Shown piece by piece: positions 25,294 to 48,798 of a stretch of 64,000 nt of DNA. The notes under the pieces were generated by a model. The model saw only the letters and a program-made list of their open reading frames with translations, searched no databases and was not told the origin of the DNA. Source of the stretch: Planctomycetota bacterium (GTDB lineage Bacteria; Planctomycetota; UBA1135; UBA2386); assembly GCA_046290465.1 (NCBI GenBank), contig JBKAGP010000001.1, positions 2,944,001 through 3,008,000 of the forward strand, given 5' to 3'. A program made the translations under genes and the position numbers. Every line of letters starts with the position of its first letter. Positions within the stretch are counted from its first letter, which is position 1.

Positions 25294-26610
25294 TCAATGT
25301 CGCCGTCCCGGAGTCTGGAGCAACCGCTCCAGCACGACGGTCGCCGCCAAGTCTCCCGTCACGTTCACCGCGGTTCGCGACATATCAAGGATGCGGTCGA
25401 CTCCCAAGATCATGGCCACTCCACCGGCCGGGACCCCGATGCCCTGAAGCACTGATGCCAGGATGACGATGCCGACTCCAGGAGTGCTCGGCGATCCAAT
25501 CGAAGCACCGATCGTCGTGCAAGCCAGCAACGCCATCTCACCGAGGCTGAGGTCCACACCAAACACCTGGGTCATGAATACGGCAGCAGTCACCTGATAG
25601 AGCGCTGTTCCGTCCATGTTCACGGTCGCTCCAAGCGGAATGACGAACTGCACGACCGGTCGTGACGCCCCCAGGCTTTCCTCTGCGATCTTCATCGACA
25701 GCGGCATAACGGCGGCAGAACTCGAGGTGGAGAACGCAAGCAACTGCGCATCACGAATGCGGGCGAGAAACTGCAACGGCCCCTGCTTCCCCAACCACCG
25801 CACGAGCAAGGAGTAGACGACGATCAGTGCTACGAGTCCAAGAAGGACGGTCGCCACGTAGGCCCCAAGCCCCGCGAGGGCATTCGCTCCAGTACGCGTC
25901 ATCACTTGCGCCAAGAGCCCAAAAACCGCAACTGGTGCAAGCGCCATCGCCCACCCGACAACCTTGAGTGCAAGCTCCTGCGTCGCCTGGAGAATCCGAA
26001 TGAGGAGTTCGCGGGACTCGGATCTGAGCCCTACCAGCGCGACGCCAACCAACATCGCGAACACCACCAACTGCAGCATGCTTCGGTGAAGAAGAGCGCT
26101 CGACGGATTGCTCGGAATGATCTCTGCAATGCGTTCGGGCAACAGTCTTGATGAAGCCCCCGTCTCGACTGGCATGCCCCCCTGATCGGTGACACCATCG
26201 AACGACGCACCATCGACGAGGTGACCTGGCCCGATCAGGGTAGCAAGGGTGATCCCGATCAGCACCGCGATACAGGTCGTCGCTACGAAGTAGGGAAGAA
26301 CTCGGAGCCCCACGCGCTTGAGAAACTCCGCTGACCCACCAGACGCGATCCCCAGGATGACCGACGAGAGCACCAGCGGCACGACCATCATCTGGATCAG
26401 CGCCATGAAGACATGACCCGGCAAGGCCAGCCAGCACGCAATCAGTCTCGCGCCGCTCTCCGCAAAGAGACCACCTCCCGAGGGGGAGAGGGCCAAGCCA
26501 ACGCCCACGCCCAGCGCCATCCCTATGAGAACCTGCAGCCATAGGCGACTCCGAACGTAAGCCGCAATGCGCCGCAAGAGCCCTTGTGACCCTACTTCAC
26601 GATTTCTCAT
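25294..26610 (-). CDS. Dicarboxylate/amino acid:cation symporter (DAACS family)
   Basis: AFSTSSSAAVMP, PLGATVNMDGTA, GVDRILDMSRTAVNVTGD; AGGAGG RBS. Confidence 0.93.
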   Translation of the reverse strand: MRNREVGSQGLLRRIAAYVRSRLWLQVLIGMALGVGVGLALSPSGGGLFAESGARLIACWLALPGHVFMALIQMMVVPLVLSSVILGIASGGSAEFLKRVGLRVLPYFVATTCIAVLIGITLATLIGPGHLVDGASFDGVTDQGGMPVETGASSRLLPERIAEIIPSNPSSALLHRSMLQLVVFAMLVGVALVGLRSESRELLIRILQATQELALKVVGWAMALAPVAVFGLLAQVMTRTGANALAGLGAYVATVLLGLVALIVVYSLLVRWLGKQGPLQFLARIRDAQLLAFSTSSSAAVMPLSMKIAEESLGASRPVVQFVIPLGATVNMDGTALYQVTAAVFMTQVFGVDLSLGEMALLACTTIGASIGSPSTPGVGIVILASVLQGIGVPAGGVAMILGVDRILDMSRTAVNVTGDLAATVVLERLLQTPGRRH

Positions 26611-26840
26611 CATGCCTCCTGGAAGCGCTCCGGGATGCACAGCATCCCGCCGATGAATCCCAGCCGCGCGGCATGACTTGCTCCCTATCGCCTCGCAACT
26701 CCAGCCGACTCACGCAGCGGCGAGGTCTCGCCGACACAATCCAGAGTGATCAGGCTTCGGACCGAAAGCGGCGACATGCATGTAAGTAGCCCCGCAGTCG
26801 CAGCGGCGAGACCTCGCGGCCCCAGCGCTGCGCGGGCCCC

Positions 26841-27143
26841 CTACTTGCGCTTTGCCGACTGCCCAGCGGCGTCCATTCCCGCAAGCAACTGCTCTACAGT
26901 TGTCGCATTGGGGTCAAGGCTGACGACGATATCGGCCGAACCAGGCTCGACCTCGATTCCCGACACGCCAGGGAGCTTGGTCACGGCACCACGCACGGTG
27001 GCGGCACAACCGCCTCAAGTCGGCGTCTTGTCCAGGACAAGGTGGACTTGGGTAGACGTGAGCTGAGAGTCGTGCTTGACCGTGCTGCAGCCAGCGAATG
27101 ACAGCGCGACGATGACTGCGCAGGCAATCCAGAGATGCTTCAT
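26841..27143 (-). CDS. Putative selenocysteine-containing HMA-domain lipoprotein (U43 in TPT-U-GGC)
   Basis: Lipobox FAGC at C19; in-frame TGA 27015-27017 followed by GGCAATVRGAVTKLPGVSGIEVEPGSADIVVSLDPNATTVEQLLAGMDAAG, an HMA-fold continuation; TAG at 26841; 100 aa with readthrough. Confidence 0.85.
26979..27011 (-). promoter_or_regulatory. SECIS-like hairpin after the in-frame UGA
   Basis: GGUUGUG-C-CGCCAC [CGUGC] GUGGUG-C-CGUGACC; the loop starts 17 nt after the UGA and has G at position 2. Confidence 0.7.
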
Positions 27144-27254
27144 GATTAGGGTTCTGGGTGTTGTTGGATGAACCGAGACGCAAGCCCGAAACGCAGGGCT
27201 GCACAAGGCCATCCGCAACCACCATGCCACGCCGAGCAGCTAGCACATGACTTG

Positions 27255-27935
27255 CTACCCCGGCGACTTGCGCGCTGCATCGACAACCGCAATGTACTTC
27301 GCGGGATTCTCATCGATGTTCGCAAGGCAGTCTGGACAACAAACCCGAATCAGGCGACCCGCGACAACAGCTTCCAGGTACGGGGGCGCAGGCAGGCCTA
27401 TCGGACGACCACTCACGGGGCAGCTACTGAGGCCGTAGCCGTCTGCCTGGGAACGCGCGGCAGCCCTGCTCAGAGCATCGAGGAACTTGCTCGGCCCCTT
27501 CATGACGGCCTCCCTCTCGTCGCTCGAATCAACCCTGACGAGCCGGTTGCCTACGACGAACTCGACGGGGCGTGCCGGCAACTGCCTCCCGGTCACGACT
27601 GAATCCCTCATCGCGTAGATCCCCTCCTGGTCCGCTACGATCCACCGGTCAACCTCTGCAAAACTGCTCACCAGATCCTGACCGAACAACCGCGAACACT
27701 GACTGCAACAGAACCGCACCTCGCGACCGCCGTAGGACTTGATGAGCCCAGTCTTGGTCACGGCCAAGTCCTCACCTGAAACTGGGCAGGTGGCGAACGG
27801 GTAGGGGTCACCGATCCTGAAGTAAGGCCGAGAGACTCGAAACGCACTCGGCGCAATGCGGTTGCGAACTCCTCCCGCACCCGAGCCACGGGGCGCCGCG
27901 CACGCAAGAAGGAACACGGCGAGCACGATTGCCAC
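27255..27935 (-). CDS. Putative lipoprotein with tandem YHS/TRASH-like Cys motifs
   Basis: YPFATCPVSG...EVRFCCSQC and CPVSG...IRVCCPDC; LLAC lipobox; start uncertain (ORF track gives 28121); paralog of 31332..32045. Confidence 0.75.
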   Translation of the reverse strand: MAIVLAVFLLACAAPRGSGAGGVRNRIAPSAFRVSRPYFRIGDPYPFATCPVSGEDLAVTKTGLIKSYGGREVRFCCSQCSRLFGQDLVSSFAEVDRWIVADQEGIYAMRDSVVTGRQLPARPVEFVVGNRLVRVDSSDEREAVMKGPSKFLDALSRAAARSQADGYGLSSCPVSGRPIGLPAPPYLEAVVAGRLIRVCCPDCLANIDENPAKYIAVVDAARKSPG

Positions 27936-28209
27936 CCCCGAGACCGAAAGGGACCGTGCGAACGAGCGCCAGAAGCACCGCCGAGACCAGCGTGCTGGAC
28001 AACCATTATTGCAACGCATCGCGACACAAAGACAGCAACGTGCGTGCCTCGCCGCGCAACCCTCGATCACCGCCCACCGACCACCACGGGGACAGCCCAA
28101 TTCGCACGGCCATCCCGGCAACGAAACCTGTCAGCGCCGTCGCTGTCCGGCCAAACACATGGCGGCCGAGGGCACCGCCACGCGTGGCGGCTCAGCGCGC
28201 GCGGCCTCA

Positions 28210-30501
28210 TCAACCAGCCGACCCGAACGCACGTAGCCGCAGCGCGTTGACGATAACCGACACCGAGCTCAGGCTCATCGCAGCGGCCGCGATCATCGGA
28301 CTCAACAGCCAACCCGTGAACGGAAACAGTACGCCCGCAGCCAAAGGCACACCGGCGGCGTTGTAGCCAAACGCGAACAGGAGGTTCTGCTTGATGTTCC
28401 GCATCGTCGCTGCGCTCAGCTCGCGCGCACGCACGATGCCTCGCAGGTCGCCCCTGACGAGCGTCACGGCGGCGCTCTCCATCGCGACGTCCGTTCCTGT
28501 TCCCATCGCGATGCCCACGTCCGCCTTCGCGAGCGCAGGCGAGTCGTTGATGCCATCGCCGGCCATCGCCACCTTGGCGCCGCCTTCCTGGAGTTGCTCG
28601 ATCGTCGCGAGCTTCTGATCGGGCAGAGCATCGGCGATCACCTCGTCGATGCCCAGTTCTCGCCCGACGGCTTCGGCCGTTGCCCGGTTGTCGCCGGTCA
28701 ACATCACGACGCGCAGACCGGCACCGTGCAGGGCGCGGATGGCCTCCGGCGCGCTGTCCTTGATCGGGTCCGCGACTGCCAGCATGCCGATCAGCTGCCC
28801 ACTCGCGGCCAAGAACATGACCGTGGCCCCGTCACCCTGCAGCCGGGCGGCCCGAGTACGGTCCGCGTCCGACGCGGCCACGCCGATCTTTTCCATCAAC
28901 GCGAGATTGCCAAGGGCGACATCCTGTTGCTCGACCCGGCCCATGACGCCCTTGCCCGTCACGGACTCGAACCCATCGACGCCCGACAACTGGATCTCGC
29001 GCTCACTCGCACCCTCGACGATGGCGCGCGCGAGTGGGTGTTCGCTGCGCGTCTCCAGGCTCGCCGCCAGTCGCAAGACGGCGGACTCGTCTGCTCCGGC
29101 TTCGCTGACGACCTGCACGTTAGTCAGTTTCGGCTGTCCGAGCGTCAGCGTGCCGGTCTTGTCCACGACCAATGTGTCGATGGCACGAAGGCTCTCGATC
29201 GCCTGTGCGTTGCGGAACAGCACGCCCAACTGCGCGCCCCGCCCCGTCGCCACCATGATCGACATCGGCGTCGCCAGGCCGAGCGCGCACGGGCAGGCGA
29301 TGATGAGCACGGCAACCGCGTTGAGCAGCGCATAGGCGAGGCGGGGCTCCGGCCCCCAAACGCTCCAGACGACGAACGCGAGCGCCGCACACGCGACCAC
29401 GATGGGAACGAACCAGGCGGCGACACGATCGGCAAGCCGCTGGATCGGTGCTCGGCTTCGCTGTGCATCGGCGACCATCTGGACGATCTGTGCTAACAGC
29501 GTTTCGCCGCCGACCTTCTCGGCCTCGATGGTGAGGCTCCCCGTCGTGTTGACCGTTCCGCCGATCACCTGATCGCCCGCCGCCTTGGCCACGGGGACCG
29601 GCTCGCCCGTGACCATCGACTCATCAACGGTGCTGCCGCCCTCGACGACGATGGCATCGACCGGAACGGCCTCGCCGGGACGAACTCGCAGGCGATCCCC
29701 CTTTCGGACGGACTCGACAGCGACCTCCTCCTCTGCGCCATCGGAGCCGATGCGCCGAGTCATCTTCGGCGACAGATCGAGCAACGCCCGGATCGCGGCG
29801 CCGGTGCTGCTGCGCGCGCGCAGCTCCATGACCTGACCGAGCAGCACGAGCGCCACGATCACCGCGGCGGCCTCGAAGTAGACGGCCACGCCGTGCGCTC
29901 CACGGAAGCCCTCGGGGAACCAATCGGGCGCCACGAGCGCCAGCACGCTGTAGACGTACGCGACGGAGACGCCGAGCCCAATCAGCGTGAACATGTTGAG
30001 CTGCCAACGCCTGACGGATTCCCAGCCCCGCACCAACAGCGGTAGGCCCGCCCAGGACACCACCGGCGTCGCGAACGCCAGCTCCAGCCAACGTGAGAAC
30101 CCGCCAAACAGTCCATGGATCGGAGCGCCAGGGAGCACCATGTCCCCCATCGCAAGCACGAGCAGCGGGACGGCCAGCACCGCGCTCCAGACGAAGCGGC
30201 GCCGCATGTCGCGGTACTCGGTATCGTCCGCCTCAGCGCTCGCATCGACGGGCTCGAGCGCCATGCCGCAGATGGGGCAGGTTCCCGGCCCTGCCTGCTC
30301 GATCTCCGGGTGCATGGGACACGTGTAGGTGTCAGGGGGCGCTGGTCGACCGGCCCCCGCGGTGTGACCTCTAGCAGGATGGAGGCCATGACCATGCCCG
30401 TCGGCGTTGGCGTGCTCGCCCCCATGGCAGCAGGTCTTGGCCTCTGGGGCGTCGTGGTGAGATTCATCTGACATGGGATTCCGTTCGCTTTGCATGTCCA
30501 C
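28210..30501 (-). CDS. copA: Copper-exporting P1B-type ATPase
   Basis: His-rich N-terminus and YTCPMHP..CPICGM; TGEP, CPC, DKTGT, SEHP, GDGIND, YN, MSLSS. Confidence 0.96.
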
Positions 30502-30554
30502 GCTGACGACCAGACTGGGCGAACGTTACACCTACCGTGCCAGAGGACGCCCCG

Positions 30555-31109
30555 TCAGGCCTGCGGCGGCCTCGCGCAACTGCAGTCGAGGCAGCCGTGC
30601 TCGGCACATGTGCGACAGGTGAGCTGCACTTCCCGCCGCAGAGCCGCTCGAGCGCGGTGCAGGCGAACGCGGGCACTCCCAGCACTGACGCCGCGATCCT
30701 TGGCGACCGCCCCGACGGACCGGCCCTCCAGATCTACGAGCCGGACAAGCTCTGCATAGTCCGGATGGATGAGCGGCAACAACCCCTGGATGCAGACGCA
30801 GACGTCGCGCTGCCGTTCGGCATCCTCAGCTACCTGGAGGAGGTCGGAGTCAATCTCTAGGCCTGGGTGCCCCTCGGACCGCCGGCGATGCCGATCCACG
30901 ATGGCATTTCGGAGGATCCGGTAGAACCAGGCAACGACGTTCCCCTCCTCGCCTACGTCGACGACGCGCTCGACGCCACGCGCAAACGCGTCCTGCAGGA
31001 TCTCCTCGGCCTCATCCCGCGATGCTACACGGCGCTCGAGAAACGCCAGAAACTGGCGACGACTGGCGAGCAGGATCAAGAGTCGCTTATGGCTTTCGGA
31101 ATCGGTCAT
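30555..31109 (-). CDS. CorE-like metal-responsive ECF sigma factor
   Basis: sigma2 (AEEILQDAF, WFYRILRN) and sigma4 (RVRLHRAR); linker CVC; Cys-rich tail CRTCAEHGCLDCSC; no anti-sigma gene adjacent. Confidence 0.88.
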   Translation of the reverse strand: MTDSESHKRLLILLASRRQFLAFLERRVASRDEAEEILQDAFARGVERVVDVGEEGNVVAWFYRILRNAIVDRHRRRSEGHPGLEIDSDLLQVAEDAERQRDVCVCIQGLLPLIHPDYAELVRLVDLEGRSVGAVAKDRGVSAGSARVRLHRARAALRREVQLTCRTCAEHGCLDCSCARPPQA

Positions 31110-31331
31110 GACGTTGAGGCCCGTGACCGTACCGGCTGTTCGCCATCATCGAGTCTCCTTCTTCCGCCTGGGATCACACCTCACCTTGGTCGTCCGACGG
31201 CACGCGCCTTGCTGAAGCGGGTCGGAATCACCTTGCGCGCGCCAGCCCAACGCTGCCGCGACGGCTCCAACATCACGATGGCGATGTACGCCAGCACTCA
31301 TCCAAACCCGCCCAAAAGAAGGAAACCCAAG

Positions 31332-32045
31332 ATGTCATTGCTCCGCTCCGCGATCTGCGCCGTAACTGCGATTGCGCTACTGAGCGCACCGACGGCCGCG
31401 CAGCATGGCGGCCACCACGACCACCCGGCGCCTCACCAGAAACCGACCACCAAGACCTCGAGAACTGGTGACCCCTACCCGTTCGCCACCTGCCCAGTTT
31501 CCGGCAAGAAGCTAGGAACCATGGGCGATCCCTTGGTGAAGGTCTACCGAGGGCGCGAAGTCCGCTTCTGCTGCGGTGGTTGCACCGGCAGCTTTGAGAA
31601 GGACCTCGACAGCAGCTTGGCCAAGCTCGACCAGAAGGTCATCGCAGACCAGCGCCCCATCTACCCGATGTCGAAATCGGTCGTCTCGGGCAAGAAGCTC
31701 CCGAAGAAGCCTGTCAACCTGGTCCTCGGCAACCGGCTCATCCTGTTGGCTGATGCGAAGGAGAAGGCAACAGCGCTGAAGTCACCCGGGAAGTACCTGA
31801 AGCAGCTGGACGCCGCCGTGAGCTCTGCGCAGGGAAAGAGCTACCCGTTGCAGAAGTGCGTAGTCAGCAACGAGCCCCTGGACAGCATGGGGAAACCAAA
31901 GGATGTCGTCATCGCCGGTCGCTTGATCCGCATCTGCTGTTCAAGCTGCGCAAAGAAGCTCGACAAGACGCCCTCCACATTCATCTCGACGATTGACAAG
32001 GCGACCGCCGAACAGTCCCGTCCGAAGGCCCGAAACGGCAAGTAG
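31332..32045 (+). CDS. Exported His-rich protein with YHS/TRASH-like Cys repeats
   Basis: AAGGA RBS, signal peptide, HGGHHDH, YPFATCPVSG..FCCGGC, a degenerate middle repeat, YPLQKCVVS..ICCSSC. Confidence 0.82.
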   Translation: MSLLRSAICAVTAIALLSAPTAAQHGGHHDHPAPHQKPTTKTSRTGDPYPFATCPVSGKKLGTMGDPLVKVYRGREVRFCCGGCTGSFEKDLDSSLAKLDQKVIADQRPIYPMSKSVVSGKKLPKKPVNLVLGNRLILLADAKEKATALKSPGKYLKQLDAAVSSAQGKSYPLQKCVVSNEPLDSMGKPKDVVIAGRLIRICCSSCAKKLDKTPSTFISTIDKATAEQSRPKARNGK

Positions 32046-47640: not shown

Positions 47641-48264
47641 TCAGAGCTTCTTCTCGGCCTTGATGCCTGGTTTGGCAGCCTTCTTCGCCGCCGGTTTCTT
47701 CTCGACCAAGGCGAAGGAGCTCACCTTGAACTTCGTGTCTGCAAGTGCCTTGACGACAGCCTCGCGAGTGAGCGAGCCCTTCTTCATGGCTACGGTCACG
47801 GCCTTGGCCTTGAGGTCGACTTCGACGCTATTCACACCCGCGATCTTGGCGAGGGTCTCACGGACCCCCGAGGCGCAACCGCCTCAAGTCATTCCCGTCA
47901 CGCCCACGACGTAGACGCCCTTCGGAGTCATGCGCGTAGCCTTGACCGACGCGAAGGAGCTCACCTTGAACTTGGTGTCCACGAGCGCCTTGACGACAGC
48001 TTCGCGCGTCAGCCCCCCCTTCTTCATGGCTACGGTCGCGGTCTTGGCTTTGAGGTCGATCTCGACGCTCTTCACGCCTGCGATCTTGGCGAGGGTCTCA
48101 CGGACCCCCGAGGCGCAACCGCCTCAGGTCATCCCCGTCACGCCGACGACGTATGTGGCCGGGGTAGTCGACTTCGCCGCAGGAACGTTCTTGGTCTCCT
48201 GAGCGATTGCTTGGACGCCTCCAAAGACGACTCCGCATAGCAGTGCGAGCACGGTGGTTCTCAT
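47641..48264 (-). CDS. Putative exported tandem-HMA selenoprotein with two Sec (U47, U127; GMT-U-GGC twice)
   Basis: GAGAGGA RBS, signal peptide MRTTVLALLCGVVFGGVQAIA; in-frame TGA at 48124-48126 and 47884-47886, each within YVVGVTGMT*GGCASGVRETLAKIAGV.SVE.DL; 207 aa with readthrough. Confidence 0.9.
47850..47870 (-). promoter_or_regulatory. SECIS-like hairpin after the second UGA
   Basis: CGGGGGUC [CGUGA] GACCCUCG; the loop starts 21 nt after the UGA. Confidence 0.72.
48090..48110 (-). promoter_or_regulatory. SECIS-like hairpin after the first UGA
   Basis: Identical CGGGGGUC [CGUGA] GACCCUCG at the same spacing. Confidence 0.72.
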
Positions 48265-48798
48265 ATGTCCTCTCATGGATCTCTCTCGACTGGGCTAGGC
48301 GGATGCACGGCCGAGATAACGCGAAAGCGCCTCACCCTGACAACCAGGTGCCGCTCAGGAAATCCACCTGAAGGAGTCCCAGGGGCCGCAATGTAGGCGA
48401 AACTCATCCGAGCGCAACGGCCGCAGGCGCGGAGCTAGCCTCACGCCGGCCACTTGATCGCCGCTGGTTCGGCATGACGAACGACTTCTCCCCCGAATGA
48501 TCCCGCTCGCCAAGTGTGGTCTGTGCCAGTTTAGGGCCATCCGCGATCTAGCGCTGGAACGAGACGCCCTTCGACTGCCTCCCCGCAAGCGCCACGTCTG
48601 CCTCTGGGCTCCAACATCCGGCCCGAAGAGGGCCGAAAGCGCATTCTCGTCGTCATGGGCGCGGCGCATGAGGTACGAGGGAGCTCCTCGCGATCGCTGA
48701 TGGTCAGCTCAGAAGCGCGTAAATCCCGATCCCAAGGGGCCTTGACCCGCCCTCGGACCACCTCCTGGTGACTTCCCACGAGAGTTTCATTCAGCAAC

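Follow-up and report, generated by a model that had tools for sequence, protein, structure and literature searches.

A predicted selenocysteine-containing HMA lipoprotein encoded beside a copper ATPase gene in a Planctomycetota genome

Introduction

We analyzed a 64,000-nt stretch of DNA from a Planctomycetota bacterium (hereafter the window; positions 2,944,001 to 3,008,000 of contig JBKAGP010000001.1, GenBank assembly GCA_046290465.1), and focused on a short reverse-strand gene at positions 26841-27143 of the window whose frame is interrupted by one TGA codon. The gene very likely encodes a genuine selenoprotein: an exported, lipid-anchored single HMA domain with a U-G-G-C metal loop, for which the likeliest role is that of a periplasmic Cu(I) acceptor or chaperone. 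The UGA at 27017-27015 almost certainly encodes selenocysteine (Sec) in the predicted metal site rather than marking a broken gene. We read it as a Sec codon because of four lines of evidence, counted as independent: the Sec machinery of the same genome, the conservation of the UGA, the Cys counterparts at the aligned position and the purifying selection on the codons after the UGA. A covarying hairpin just downstream of the UGA is the candidate selenocysteine insertion sequence (SECIS). An earlier note on the window, made from its letters, had called the product a probable membrane-anchored Sec metallochaperone; the UGA, the lipobox, the HMA fold and the Sec machinery bear this description out, while the copper part of the role is suggested by the neighboring genes.

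Results

An in-frame UGA lies at the metal site of a predicted HMA lipoprotein

The translated product of 27143-26841 (-) reads ...LVLDKTPT-U43-GGC46-AATVRG..., with a short linker between the signal peptide and the domain. After DKTPT and the TGA at 27017-27015, the frame runs GGCAATVRGAVTKLPGVSGIEV... and stays open to the TAG at 26843-26841 (Table 1). The lipobox FAGC, the DKTPT-TGA junction and the uninterrupted run to the TAG at 26841 were thus all found where the earlier note had placed them. The predicted lipidated residue is C19 (codon 27089-27087), which is invariant in the family alignment A2, and a lipobox-like Cys is kept in 38 of 39 family members when the alignment is judged by eye. 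With a signal peptide and a lipobox that carries an invariant Cys, the product is classed by its sequence as a bacterial lipoprotein, its lipidation being predicted. The table 11 listing of open reading frames (ORFs) divides the gene into a 71-residue and a 51-residue ORF, the latter opening at GTG 26996.

Residues 42-94, in the part after the TGA, matched the Pfam HMA model (PF00403) with 38.9 bits against a cut-off of 24.8 (E 1.2e-9). A structure model was generated with AlphaFold2 on the family alignment, and the predicted local distance difference test score (pLDDT) was at least 95 over residues 31-100. The model contained strands at residues 31-37, 60-64, 71-76 and 97-99 and helices at 44-55 and 83-92, and it placed U43 in the beta1-alpha1 loop just ahead of helix 44-55 and C46 within that helix, an arrangement that matches the ferredoxin-like fold of HMA domains. 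The expectation that an HMA-like fold would be completed after the TGA was borne out by both the Pfam match and the confident predicted fold. The best matches in the PDB were the MerP structures 1osd and 1afi (TM-score 0.83 normalized to the target, 30-31% identity), followed by the metal-binding domains of ATP7B and the Menkes protein, CopZ and the Atx1-type chaperones, so that only HMA proteins were retrieved. No NCBIfam model passed its cut-off for the 27143-26841 (-) product; the top-ranked models, those of MerP, CopZ and the UxxU metal-binding (seleno)protein, all missed their cut-offs by a wide margin. The predicted protein is therefore an HMA domain outside every curated equivalog.

Table 1 Features of the HMA lipoprotein gene and of related and neighboring genes in the window
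Feature	Coordinates	Strand	Basis
Whole gene, HMA lipoprotein	26841..27143	-	100-codon ORF; ATG 27143, TAG 26843-26841; UGA codon 43 read as Sec
Signal peptide and lipobox, residues 1-19, ...L-S-F-A-G-C19	27087..27143	-	Sequence, translation
UGA codon 43 at the first Cys position of the HMA CxxC, U43-G-G-C46	27015..27017	-	Sequence; alignment column invariant
HMA fold, residues 31-99, beta-alpha-beta-beta-alpha-beta	26847..27053	-	Predicted structure, PDB matches
SECIS-like apical hairpin; arms CGCCAC (27003-26998) and GUGGUG (26992-26987), loop CGUGC (26997-26993)	26987..27003	-	Comparative alignment, held-out forms
Possible 'long hairpin' extension, 6+6 bp with a C-C mismatch	26979..27011	-	Folding; not conserved in relatives
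TRASH/YHS-like ORF, 288 aa, upstream, co-oriented	27255..28121	-	TRASH_HVO_1752_C 25.2 vs cut-off 27 bits; YHS 21.2 vs 30.3 bits
Copper-translocating P-type ATPase, CopA type	28210..30501	-	TIGR01511 590.7 bits vs cut-off 397; E1-E2_ATPase, Hydrolase, HMBD
Extracytoplasmic function (ECF) sigma factor with Cys-rich C-terminal tail, CorE-like by resemblance	30555..31109	-	Sigma70_r2, r4_2; translation
Distant paralogue, secreted, two HMA domains	47641..48276	-	UGA at both first Cys positions, 48126-48124 and 47886-47884

The UGA is conserved, aligns with Cys and is followed by a constrained sequence

The source genome, which consists of one contig of 6.59 Mb and is 94% complete, encodes SelB (353.7 bits), SelA (453.1), SelD (352.1) and tRNA-Sec (72.8), all above the curated cut-offs. 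The selD gene (C1:1309619-1310557 (-), locus L018) carries one in-frame TGA itself (...SSAG-U-AAKL...) and adjoins selA (C1:1310605-1311945).

A six-frame search for homologues was carried out in 61 related genomes and gave matches in 31. Exactly one in-frame TGA was present in 44 of the 56 listed matches, including all of the 33 best-scoring ones; the 12 matches without a stop were weak, and about half of them lay within open frames of at least 300 residues. We extracted 39 lipoprotein-type genes, leaving out a spurious match (C1:4881972), the two domains of the two-domain gene described below and one L033 gene removed by a composition filter, and in this set the TGA was always the first residue of U-x-x-C. 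Cys occupied the aligned position in the full-length lipoprotein homologues P0086, P0092, P0111 and P0122, the four single-domain Cys forms taken from an exhaustive profile search, the best 150 matches of which were mostly multi-domain HMA proteins. Among 301 evenly sampled Planctomycetota genomes, at least six had a strong match. Three of these, the source genome included, were from the window's own family and had at least eight matches, all with TGA; the other three (L065-L067) were from other Planctomycetota families and had no stop, being Cys forms. Since 15 candidates were scored per genome, these counts are lower bounds. A related-locus search with the single protein returned three loci, all from Planctomycetota or uncultured metagenome-assembled genomes (MAGs), and the predicted lipoprotein HMA-Sec family has so far been found in Planctomycetota. 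The earlier note had proposed to look for Cys/TGA pairs among homologues, and these are present, with TGA as the dominant form and Cys in the four database proteins and L065-L067.

The codons after the UGA were compared with those of L063, an orthologue of 82% identity that also has the TGA. The two sequences differed by 26.5 synonymous and 7.5 non-synonymous changes, giving a dN of 0.061, a dS of 1.09 and a dN/dS of about 0.06 over the 57 codons after the UGA plus the stop. These values indicate strong purifying selection on the sequence after the UGA, which the earlier note had named as a point on which its reading depended, together with the existence of TGA variants and of a conserved hairpin.

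Independent sequence data were consistent with the assembly. Two DNA-type runs from different studies covered 26600-27807 with no differences, and an estuary metatranscriptome library yielded a contig of 261 nt over 26926-27186, the 5' two-thirds of the gene, with both the TGA and the hairpin kept. By codon count, the two listed coding differences of the estuary contig, at 27021 and 27111, are synonymous third positions. Because the independent runs and the estuary contig keep the TGA, it is not an assembly error. The estuary contig offers no more than a weak hint of transcription; the estuary RNA data are assembled contigs from which neither strand nor level can be read, and the two metatranscriptome runs hold 6% of the sampled words. 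A Planctomycetota MAG chromosome of 7.19 Mb (L062; OZ245838.1, 601249-607548) showed no difference from the gene over its 303 nt and carried identical CopA and TRASH-like neighbors; as it may come from the same or a very close strain, we do not count it as independent support. In a collection of 5.8 billion proteins, the only product of the gene that was found was P0002, a 65-residue N-terminal stub.

A covarying SECIS-like hairpin follows the UGA

A hairpin of 17 nt with a 6-bp stem starts 11 nt past the UGA and falls within the A-T-V-R-G codons of helix 1. We built a gap-free alignment of 41 sequences starting at the TGA, with the stem in columns 15-20 and 26-31 and the loop in columns 21-25, and counted the six stem pairs on 39 distinct rows against 500 shuffles and slid controls. 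Standard pairs made up 89.3% of the observed cells, compared with 74.3 +/- 1.3% of the shuffled ones and at most 52.6% in the slid controls. The covariation that the earlier note had suggested looking for was evident: compensatory changes occurred in four of the six stem pairs, 37 cells were changed on both sides (9.9 after shuffling), the covariation score was 0.500 (0.194 after shuffling), and none of the 500 shuffles reached the observed values. In the alignment rows, the wobble base of the Arg codon (CGU or CGC) changes with the first base of the Thr/Ala codon, and that of the Gly codon (GGC, GGU or GGA) with the first base of the Ala/Thr/Ser codon. The covarying partners thus include synonymous positions, so that protein constraint cannot account for the pairing.

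Sequences outside the alignment were used as controls. Among five held-out Sec forms from two genomes, four had all six pairs and the CGUGC loop, and the fifth had an 8-bp hairpin displaced by four bases with the same CGUGC loop. The three Cys forms had three, three and one of the six pairs, and the CGUGC loop was found in none of them. Columns outside 15-31 paired inconsistently among relatives, as judged by eye. The 'long hairpin' of the earlier note is therefore upheld in part: its apical 6-bp stem is conserved and covarying, but the long form is not the minimum free energy (MFE) structure and its extension is not conserved.

A 17-nt stem-loop located 11 nt after the UGA corresponds to the minimal geometry of the Escherichia coli SECIS. 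The present stem-loop resembles the E. coli fdhF-type SECIS in lying within the gene, shortly downstream of the UGA, and in having a small apical loop that contains G and U; it differs in that this putative SelB element shows no sequence similarity to the E. coli one and no evident bulged U. The candidate SECIS of selD in the same genome is also different, with a 9-bp stem, a CGGGC loop and a position farther from the UGA.

Paralogues in the same genome and tandem pairs in related genomes

The distant paralogue at 48276-47641 (-) reads GMT-TGA-GGC in each of its two domains, and each TGA is followed by an identical 7-bp hairpin with a CGUGA loop. Both hairpins lie in the MFE structure (z -2.0 and -2.2). 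The two domains share 27-30% identity with the 27143-26841 product (E 5e-4 and 9e-3). This agrees with the earlier description of the two genes as very different proteins with TGA at the same motif position, and of their loops as CGUG-C (26997-26993) in one and CGUG-A in the other. The same note took this as independent retention of the TGA. The shared motif position stands, but independence does not follow, as both genes belong to one domain family, in which they are distant paralogues, and a common ancestor may already have contained Sec. The two-domain gene itself stops at a TGA without such a hairpin, and it adjoins large efflux-pump ORFs.

Two further lipoprotein HMA selenoprotein paralogues were observed in the same genome, at C1:3251155 (+) (L060 5021-5329, motif U-A-S-C) and C1:3216888 (-) (L061 4716-5000, motif U-L-Q-C), both with the CGUGC hairpin in the MFE structure. 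The L061 paralogue lies directly upstream of another ECF sigma gene (L061 4137-4712), and the L060-type paralogue lies near NUDIX genes both in its own genome and in L027. The source genome thus has three lipid-anchored HMA-Sec genes in addition to the two-domain secreted paralogue, with five Sec codons in all.

Tandem pairs of different family members were seen at L029 1501-2108, L030 1163-1797 and L054 1430-2043, as well as in L068, L069, L053 and L055. In L029, L030 and L054, the upstream gene terminates with a TGA that shares bases with the start codon of the downstream gene (ATGA). Over a distance of a few hundred bases, TGA would thus be both a genuine stop codon and a codon for Sec.

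The gene lies in a string with a copper ATPase and a sigma factor

The ECF sigma factor, CopA, TRASH-like and HMA-Sec genes follow one another with gaps of 53, 88 and 111 nt (Table 1). The gene string described in the earlier note was recovered as regards the co-oriented ECF sigma factor with its Cys-rich tail and the copper ATPase, but its YHS partner is only weakly TRASH/YHS-like: the ORF at 27255-28121 had no NCBIfam match, and its Pfam matches were weak and below the cut-offs. The CopA at 28210-30501 lacks an HMA domain of its own; what it has is a His-rich N-terminal region with an HMBD motif (PF19335), and every HMA domain seen in the window resides in a separate, exported selenoprotein.

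In seven loci (L022, L023, L024, L026, L052, L063 and L064), a multicopper oxidase gene lies directly upstream of the orthologue. In L029, the orthologue adjoins CopA and a sigma factor that is 47% identical to the 30555-31109 product. A search for terminator-like sites in 26400-31400 returned four, with 2.5 expected, and none was informative about an operon.

Discussion

The favored explanation and the points against it

In the mechanism that we favor, SelB with Sec-tRNA(Sec) would read the UGA at 27017-27015, recruited by the 17-nt stem-loop (6 bp, CGUGC) that starts 11 nt after it, and Sec would be inserted at codon 43. The Sec translocon would then export the protein, and the mature form would presumably reside in the periplasm on its lipid anchor, where a soft metal ion could be held between the U43 selenolate and the C46 thiolate. 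The protein might take Cu(I) expelled by the neighboring CopA, pass Cu(I) to a multicopper oxidase, or both, its place of action being between CopA and the oxidase or efflux systems. A periplasmic Cu(I) acceptor or chaperone is favored because of the CopA, sigma factor and oxidase neighbors, the lack of a MerT match and the lack of a MerA match above the cut-off; as for the metal itself, we rate copper at slightly better than even. In an oxidizing compartment, selenium may help by lowering the pKa, by speeding up ligand exchange and by guarding against over-oxidation.

A number of observations weigh against this explanation. Selenium incorporation is a prediction from the sequence. For the hairpin, the shuffle statistics overstate the significance, the sequences being kin. 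Folds of the 43-71 nt after the UGA were no more stable than shuffled sequences (z +0.2, -0.6, -0.8 and +0.5), and in the 43-mer the long hairpin reached -14.5 kcal/mol against -16.4 kcal/mol for the MFE structure, in which a competing GGCGG/CCGCC hairpin forms immediately 3' of the UGA; the pair probability of the apical stem was about 8%. An Rfam scan of 26500-27400 at E values up to 1 gave no match. The contig from the estuary RNA library may come from contaminating DNA. For the copper role, it is solely the gene neighborhood that points to this metal, and paralogues in the same genome lie in other contexts, namely NUDIX and collagen-like genes (L060) and an ECF sigma gene (L061). Both in structure and among the NCBIfam models, the closest resemblance is to the mercury-binding protein MerP. 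Co-transcription with copA is presumed, and a promoter scan of 26400-31400 found no promoter-like sites.

The case for the SECIS rests on cross-sequence comparison because the thermodynamics of a single copy would not have supported it. Despite the kinship of the sequences, the compensatory pattern and the Cys-form control clearly hold. When pausing at the UGA, the ribosome would probably also open the competing GGCGG/CCGCC hairpin.

Alternative explanations

The alternative that survives best accepts a genuine selenoprotein and makes it a MerP-like scavenger of Hg(II) or of other very soft metals (Ag, Au or Cd), the selenolate giving it an extreme affinity for mercury. MerP is likewise an exported single HMA domain with its metal site in the beta1-alpha1 loop, its structures 1osd and 1afi are the nearest in the PDB, its model TIGR02052 gives the best NCBIfam match, a 'Mercuric transport protein MerP' selenoprotein appears in the selenoproteome table of the Global Ocean Sampling (GOS) survey (PMC2398784), and metal-efflux genes lie near the second HMA selenoprotein in the window. 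The TIGR02052 score of 32.8 bits is nevertheless far under the cut-off of 92.55, and the present protein differs from MerP in having Sec for the first Cys and a lipid anchor where MerP is soluble in the periplasm. The 94%-complete genome gave no MerT match, its best MerA-like match scored 344 bits against a cut-off of 454, and no canonical mer operon was found in it; the recurring neighbors of the family are instead CopA and a multicopper oxidase. We therefore consider a mercury scavenger unlikely, though it is the most serious competitor of the copper chaperone.

It is less probable still that the selenoprotein uses U-x-x-C mainly as a redox couple, acting as a periplasmic selenol/thiol oxidoreductase or a Cu(II) reductase. 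The compartment is an oxidizing one, and many uncharacterized prokaryotic selenoproteins resemble thiol oxidoreductases or bear UxxC/CxxU motifs that are probably redox-active, according to a 2026 review (PMC13188914). However, the predicted fold is that of a canonical HMA metallochaperone and is not thioredoxin-like, and the gene context is one of metal export and oxidation.

The two explanations that do without Sec have very little in their favor. If the TGA were a plain stop, the locus would be a pseudogene or would encode a 42-residue signal-peptide stub and a 51-residue fragment from GTG 26996. This is how gene callers read it: the table 11 listing yields two pieces, and the sole database protein is the truncated P0002. 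Against it stand the TGA at the same codon in 44 of 56 matches, a dN/dS of about 0.06 beyond it, an HMA domain and a confident fold that span it, and the covarying hairpin; the C-terminal fragment would, moreover, miss the first metal ligand and the export signal. Equally improbable is decoding of the UGA as Trp, Gly or Cys by read-through or reassignment outside the Sec pathway, since near-cognate tRNA decoding is compatible with the sequence but has no direct support, whereas TGA is a true stop in the same family (the tandem pairs in which it overlaps the next ATG), the position aligns with Cys, the residue that Sec replaces, and the genome has a complete Sec machinery with a SECIS-like hairpin at the right spacing.

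Relation to known HMA proteins and selenoproteins

The fold and the x-C-x-x-C type of site are shared with the CopZ/Atx1 chaperones and the HMA domains of copper ATPases (PDB 6ff2, 1cpz and ATP7B). These are cytoplasmic Cys-Cys proteins, whereas the present one has a signal peptide, a lipobox and a Sec-Cys pair, and its scores against the CopZ models NF033795, NF033794 and NF047957 (30.5, 22.6 and 22.6 bits) are below their cut-offs of 91, 95 and 85.

HMA, MerP and P-type ATPase selenoproteins have been on record since 2008 (PMC2398784; PMC13188914). Those of the GOS survey include MerP (PMC2398784), and Table 1 of the 2026 review (PMC13188914) has entries for NF041115, a UxxU metal-binding protein, and for a cation-transporting ATPase with UxxC. 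NCBIfam also contains a MerT/CopZ fusion selenoprotein, NF045683. Like the listed HMA-type selenoproteins, our protein would carry Sec in the CxxC site of an HMA domain and is of a predicted kind tied to metal handling; unlike them, it has a lipobox, a single Sec (UxxC) and a hairpin type of its own. It scored 30.5 bits against a cut-off of 95 for NF041115, having U-G-G-C with one Sec, and 16.7 against 375 bits for NF045683, having no transporter fusion. The planctomycete selenoprotein candidates published in supplementary Table S9 of PMC4807772 include no HMA entry in the whole table. Neither full-text literature searches nor term look-ups in PMC12013277 and PMC13326102 gave a description of a lipoprotein UxxC HMA selenoprotein family, though the supplements of these two papers and of the reviews might list one. 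The gene adds a new member to an established predicted kind and brings no new principle; a new curated family could probably be built on it.

Gene callers break the gene up or cut it short, and the whole family, about 40 genes in the sampled genomes, is probably misannotated. The signature of a UGA, 11 nt, a 6-bp stem and a CGUGC loop may be used to find further members. If the proposed role is true, the use of Sec as a metal ligand beside CopA or a multicopper oxidase would clearly exemplify a part for selenium in metal trafficking in an oxidizing compartment, and copper tolerance would be tied to selenium availability. The hairpin also shows that a SECIS is able to constrain a protein motif. 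More speculatively, and with less than even confidence, we suggest that this Planctomycetota lineage runs part of its periplasmic copper or soft-metal homeostasis on selenium, with Sec as a ligand instead of a redox catalyst and with the SECIS fixing the A-T-V-R-G motif of helix 1 in a form of RNA-protein co-evolution; were this so, the supply of selenium would set a condition on copper tolerance in the lineage.

Other observations in the window

The contigs of two independent runs break or branch at 27778-27812, a stretch of 35 nt in the TRASH/YHS-like ORF. This suggests a repeat common to another locus, perhaps the similar ORF at 30867-32045 (+).

In the 200-nt spacer between the stop of the HMA-Sec gene and the next gene, which encodes a sodium:dicarboxylate symporter, a GC-rich palindrome with the core GGCGAG-RY-CTCGCC occurs twice at a distance of 86 nt (26713-26738 and 26799-26824). 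The motif could be a terminator, an operator or an element resembling a repetitive extragenic palindrome (REP-like).

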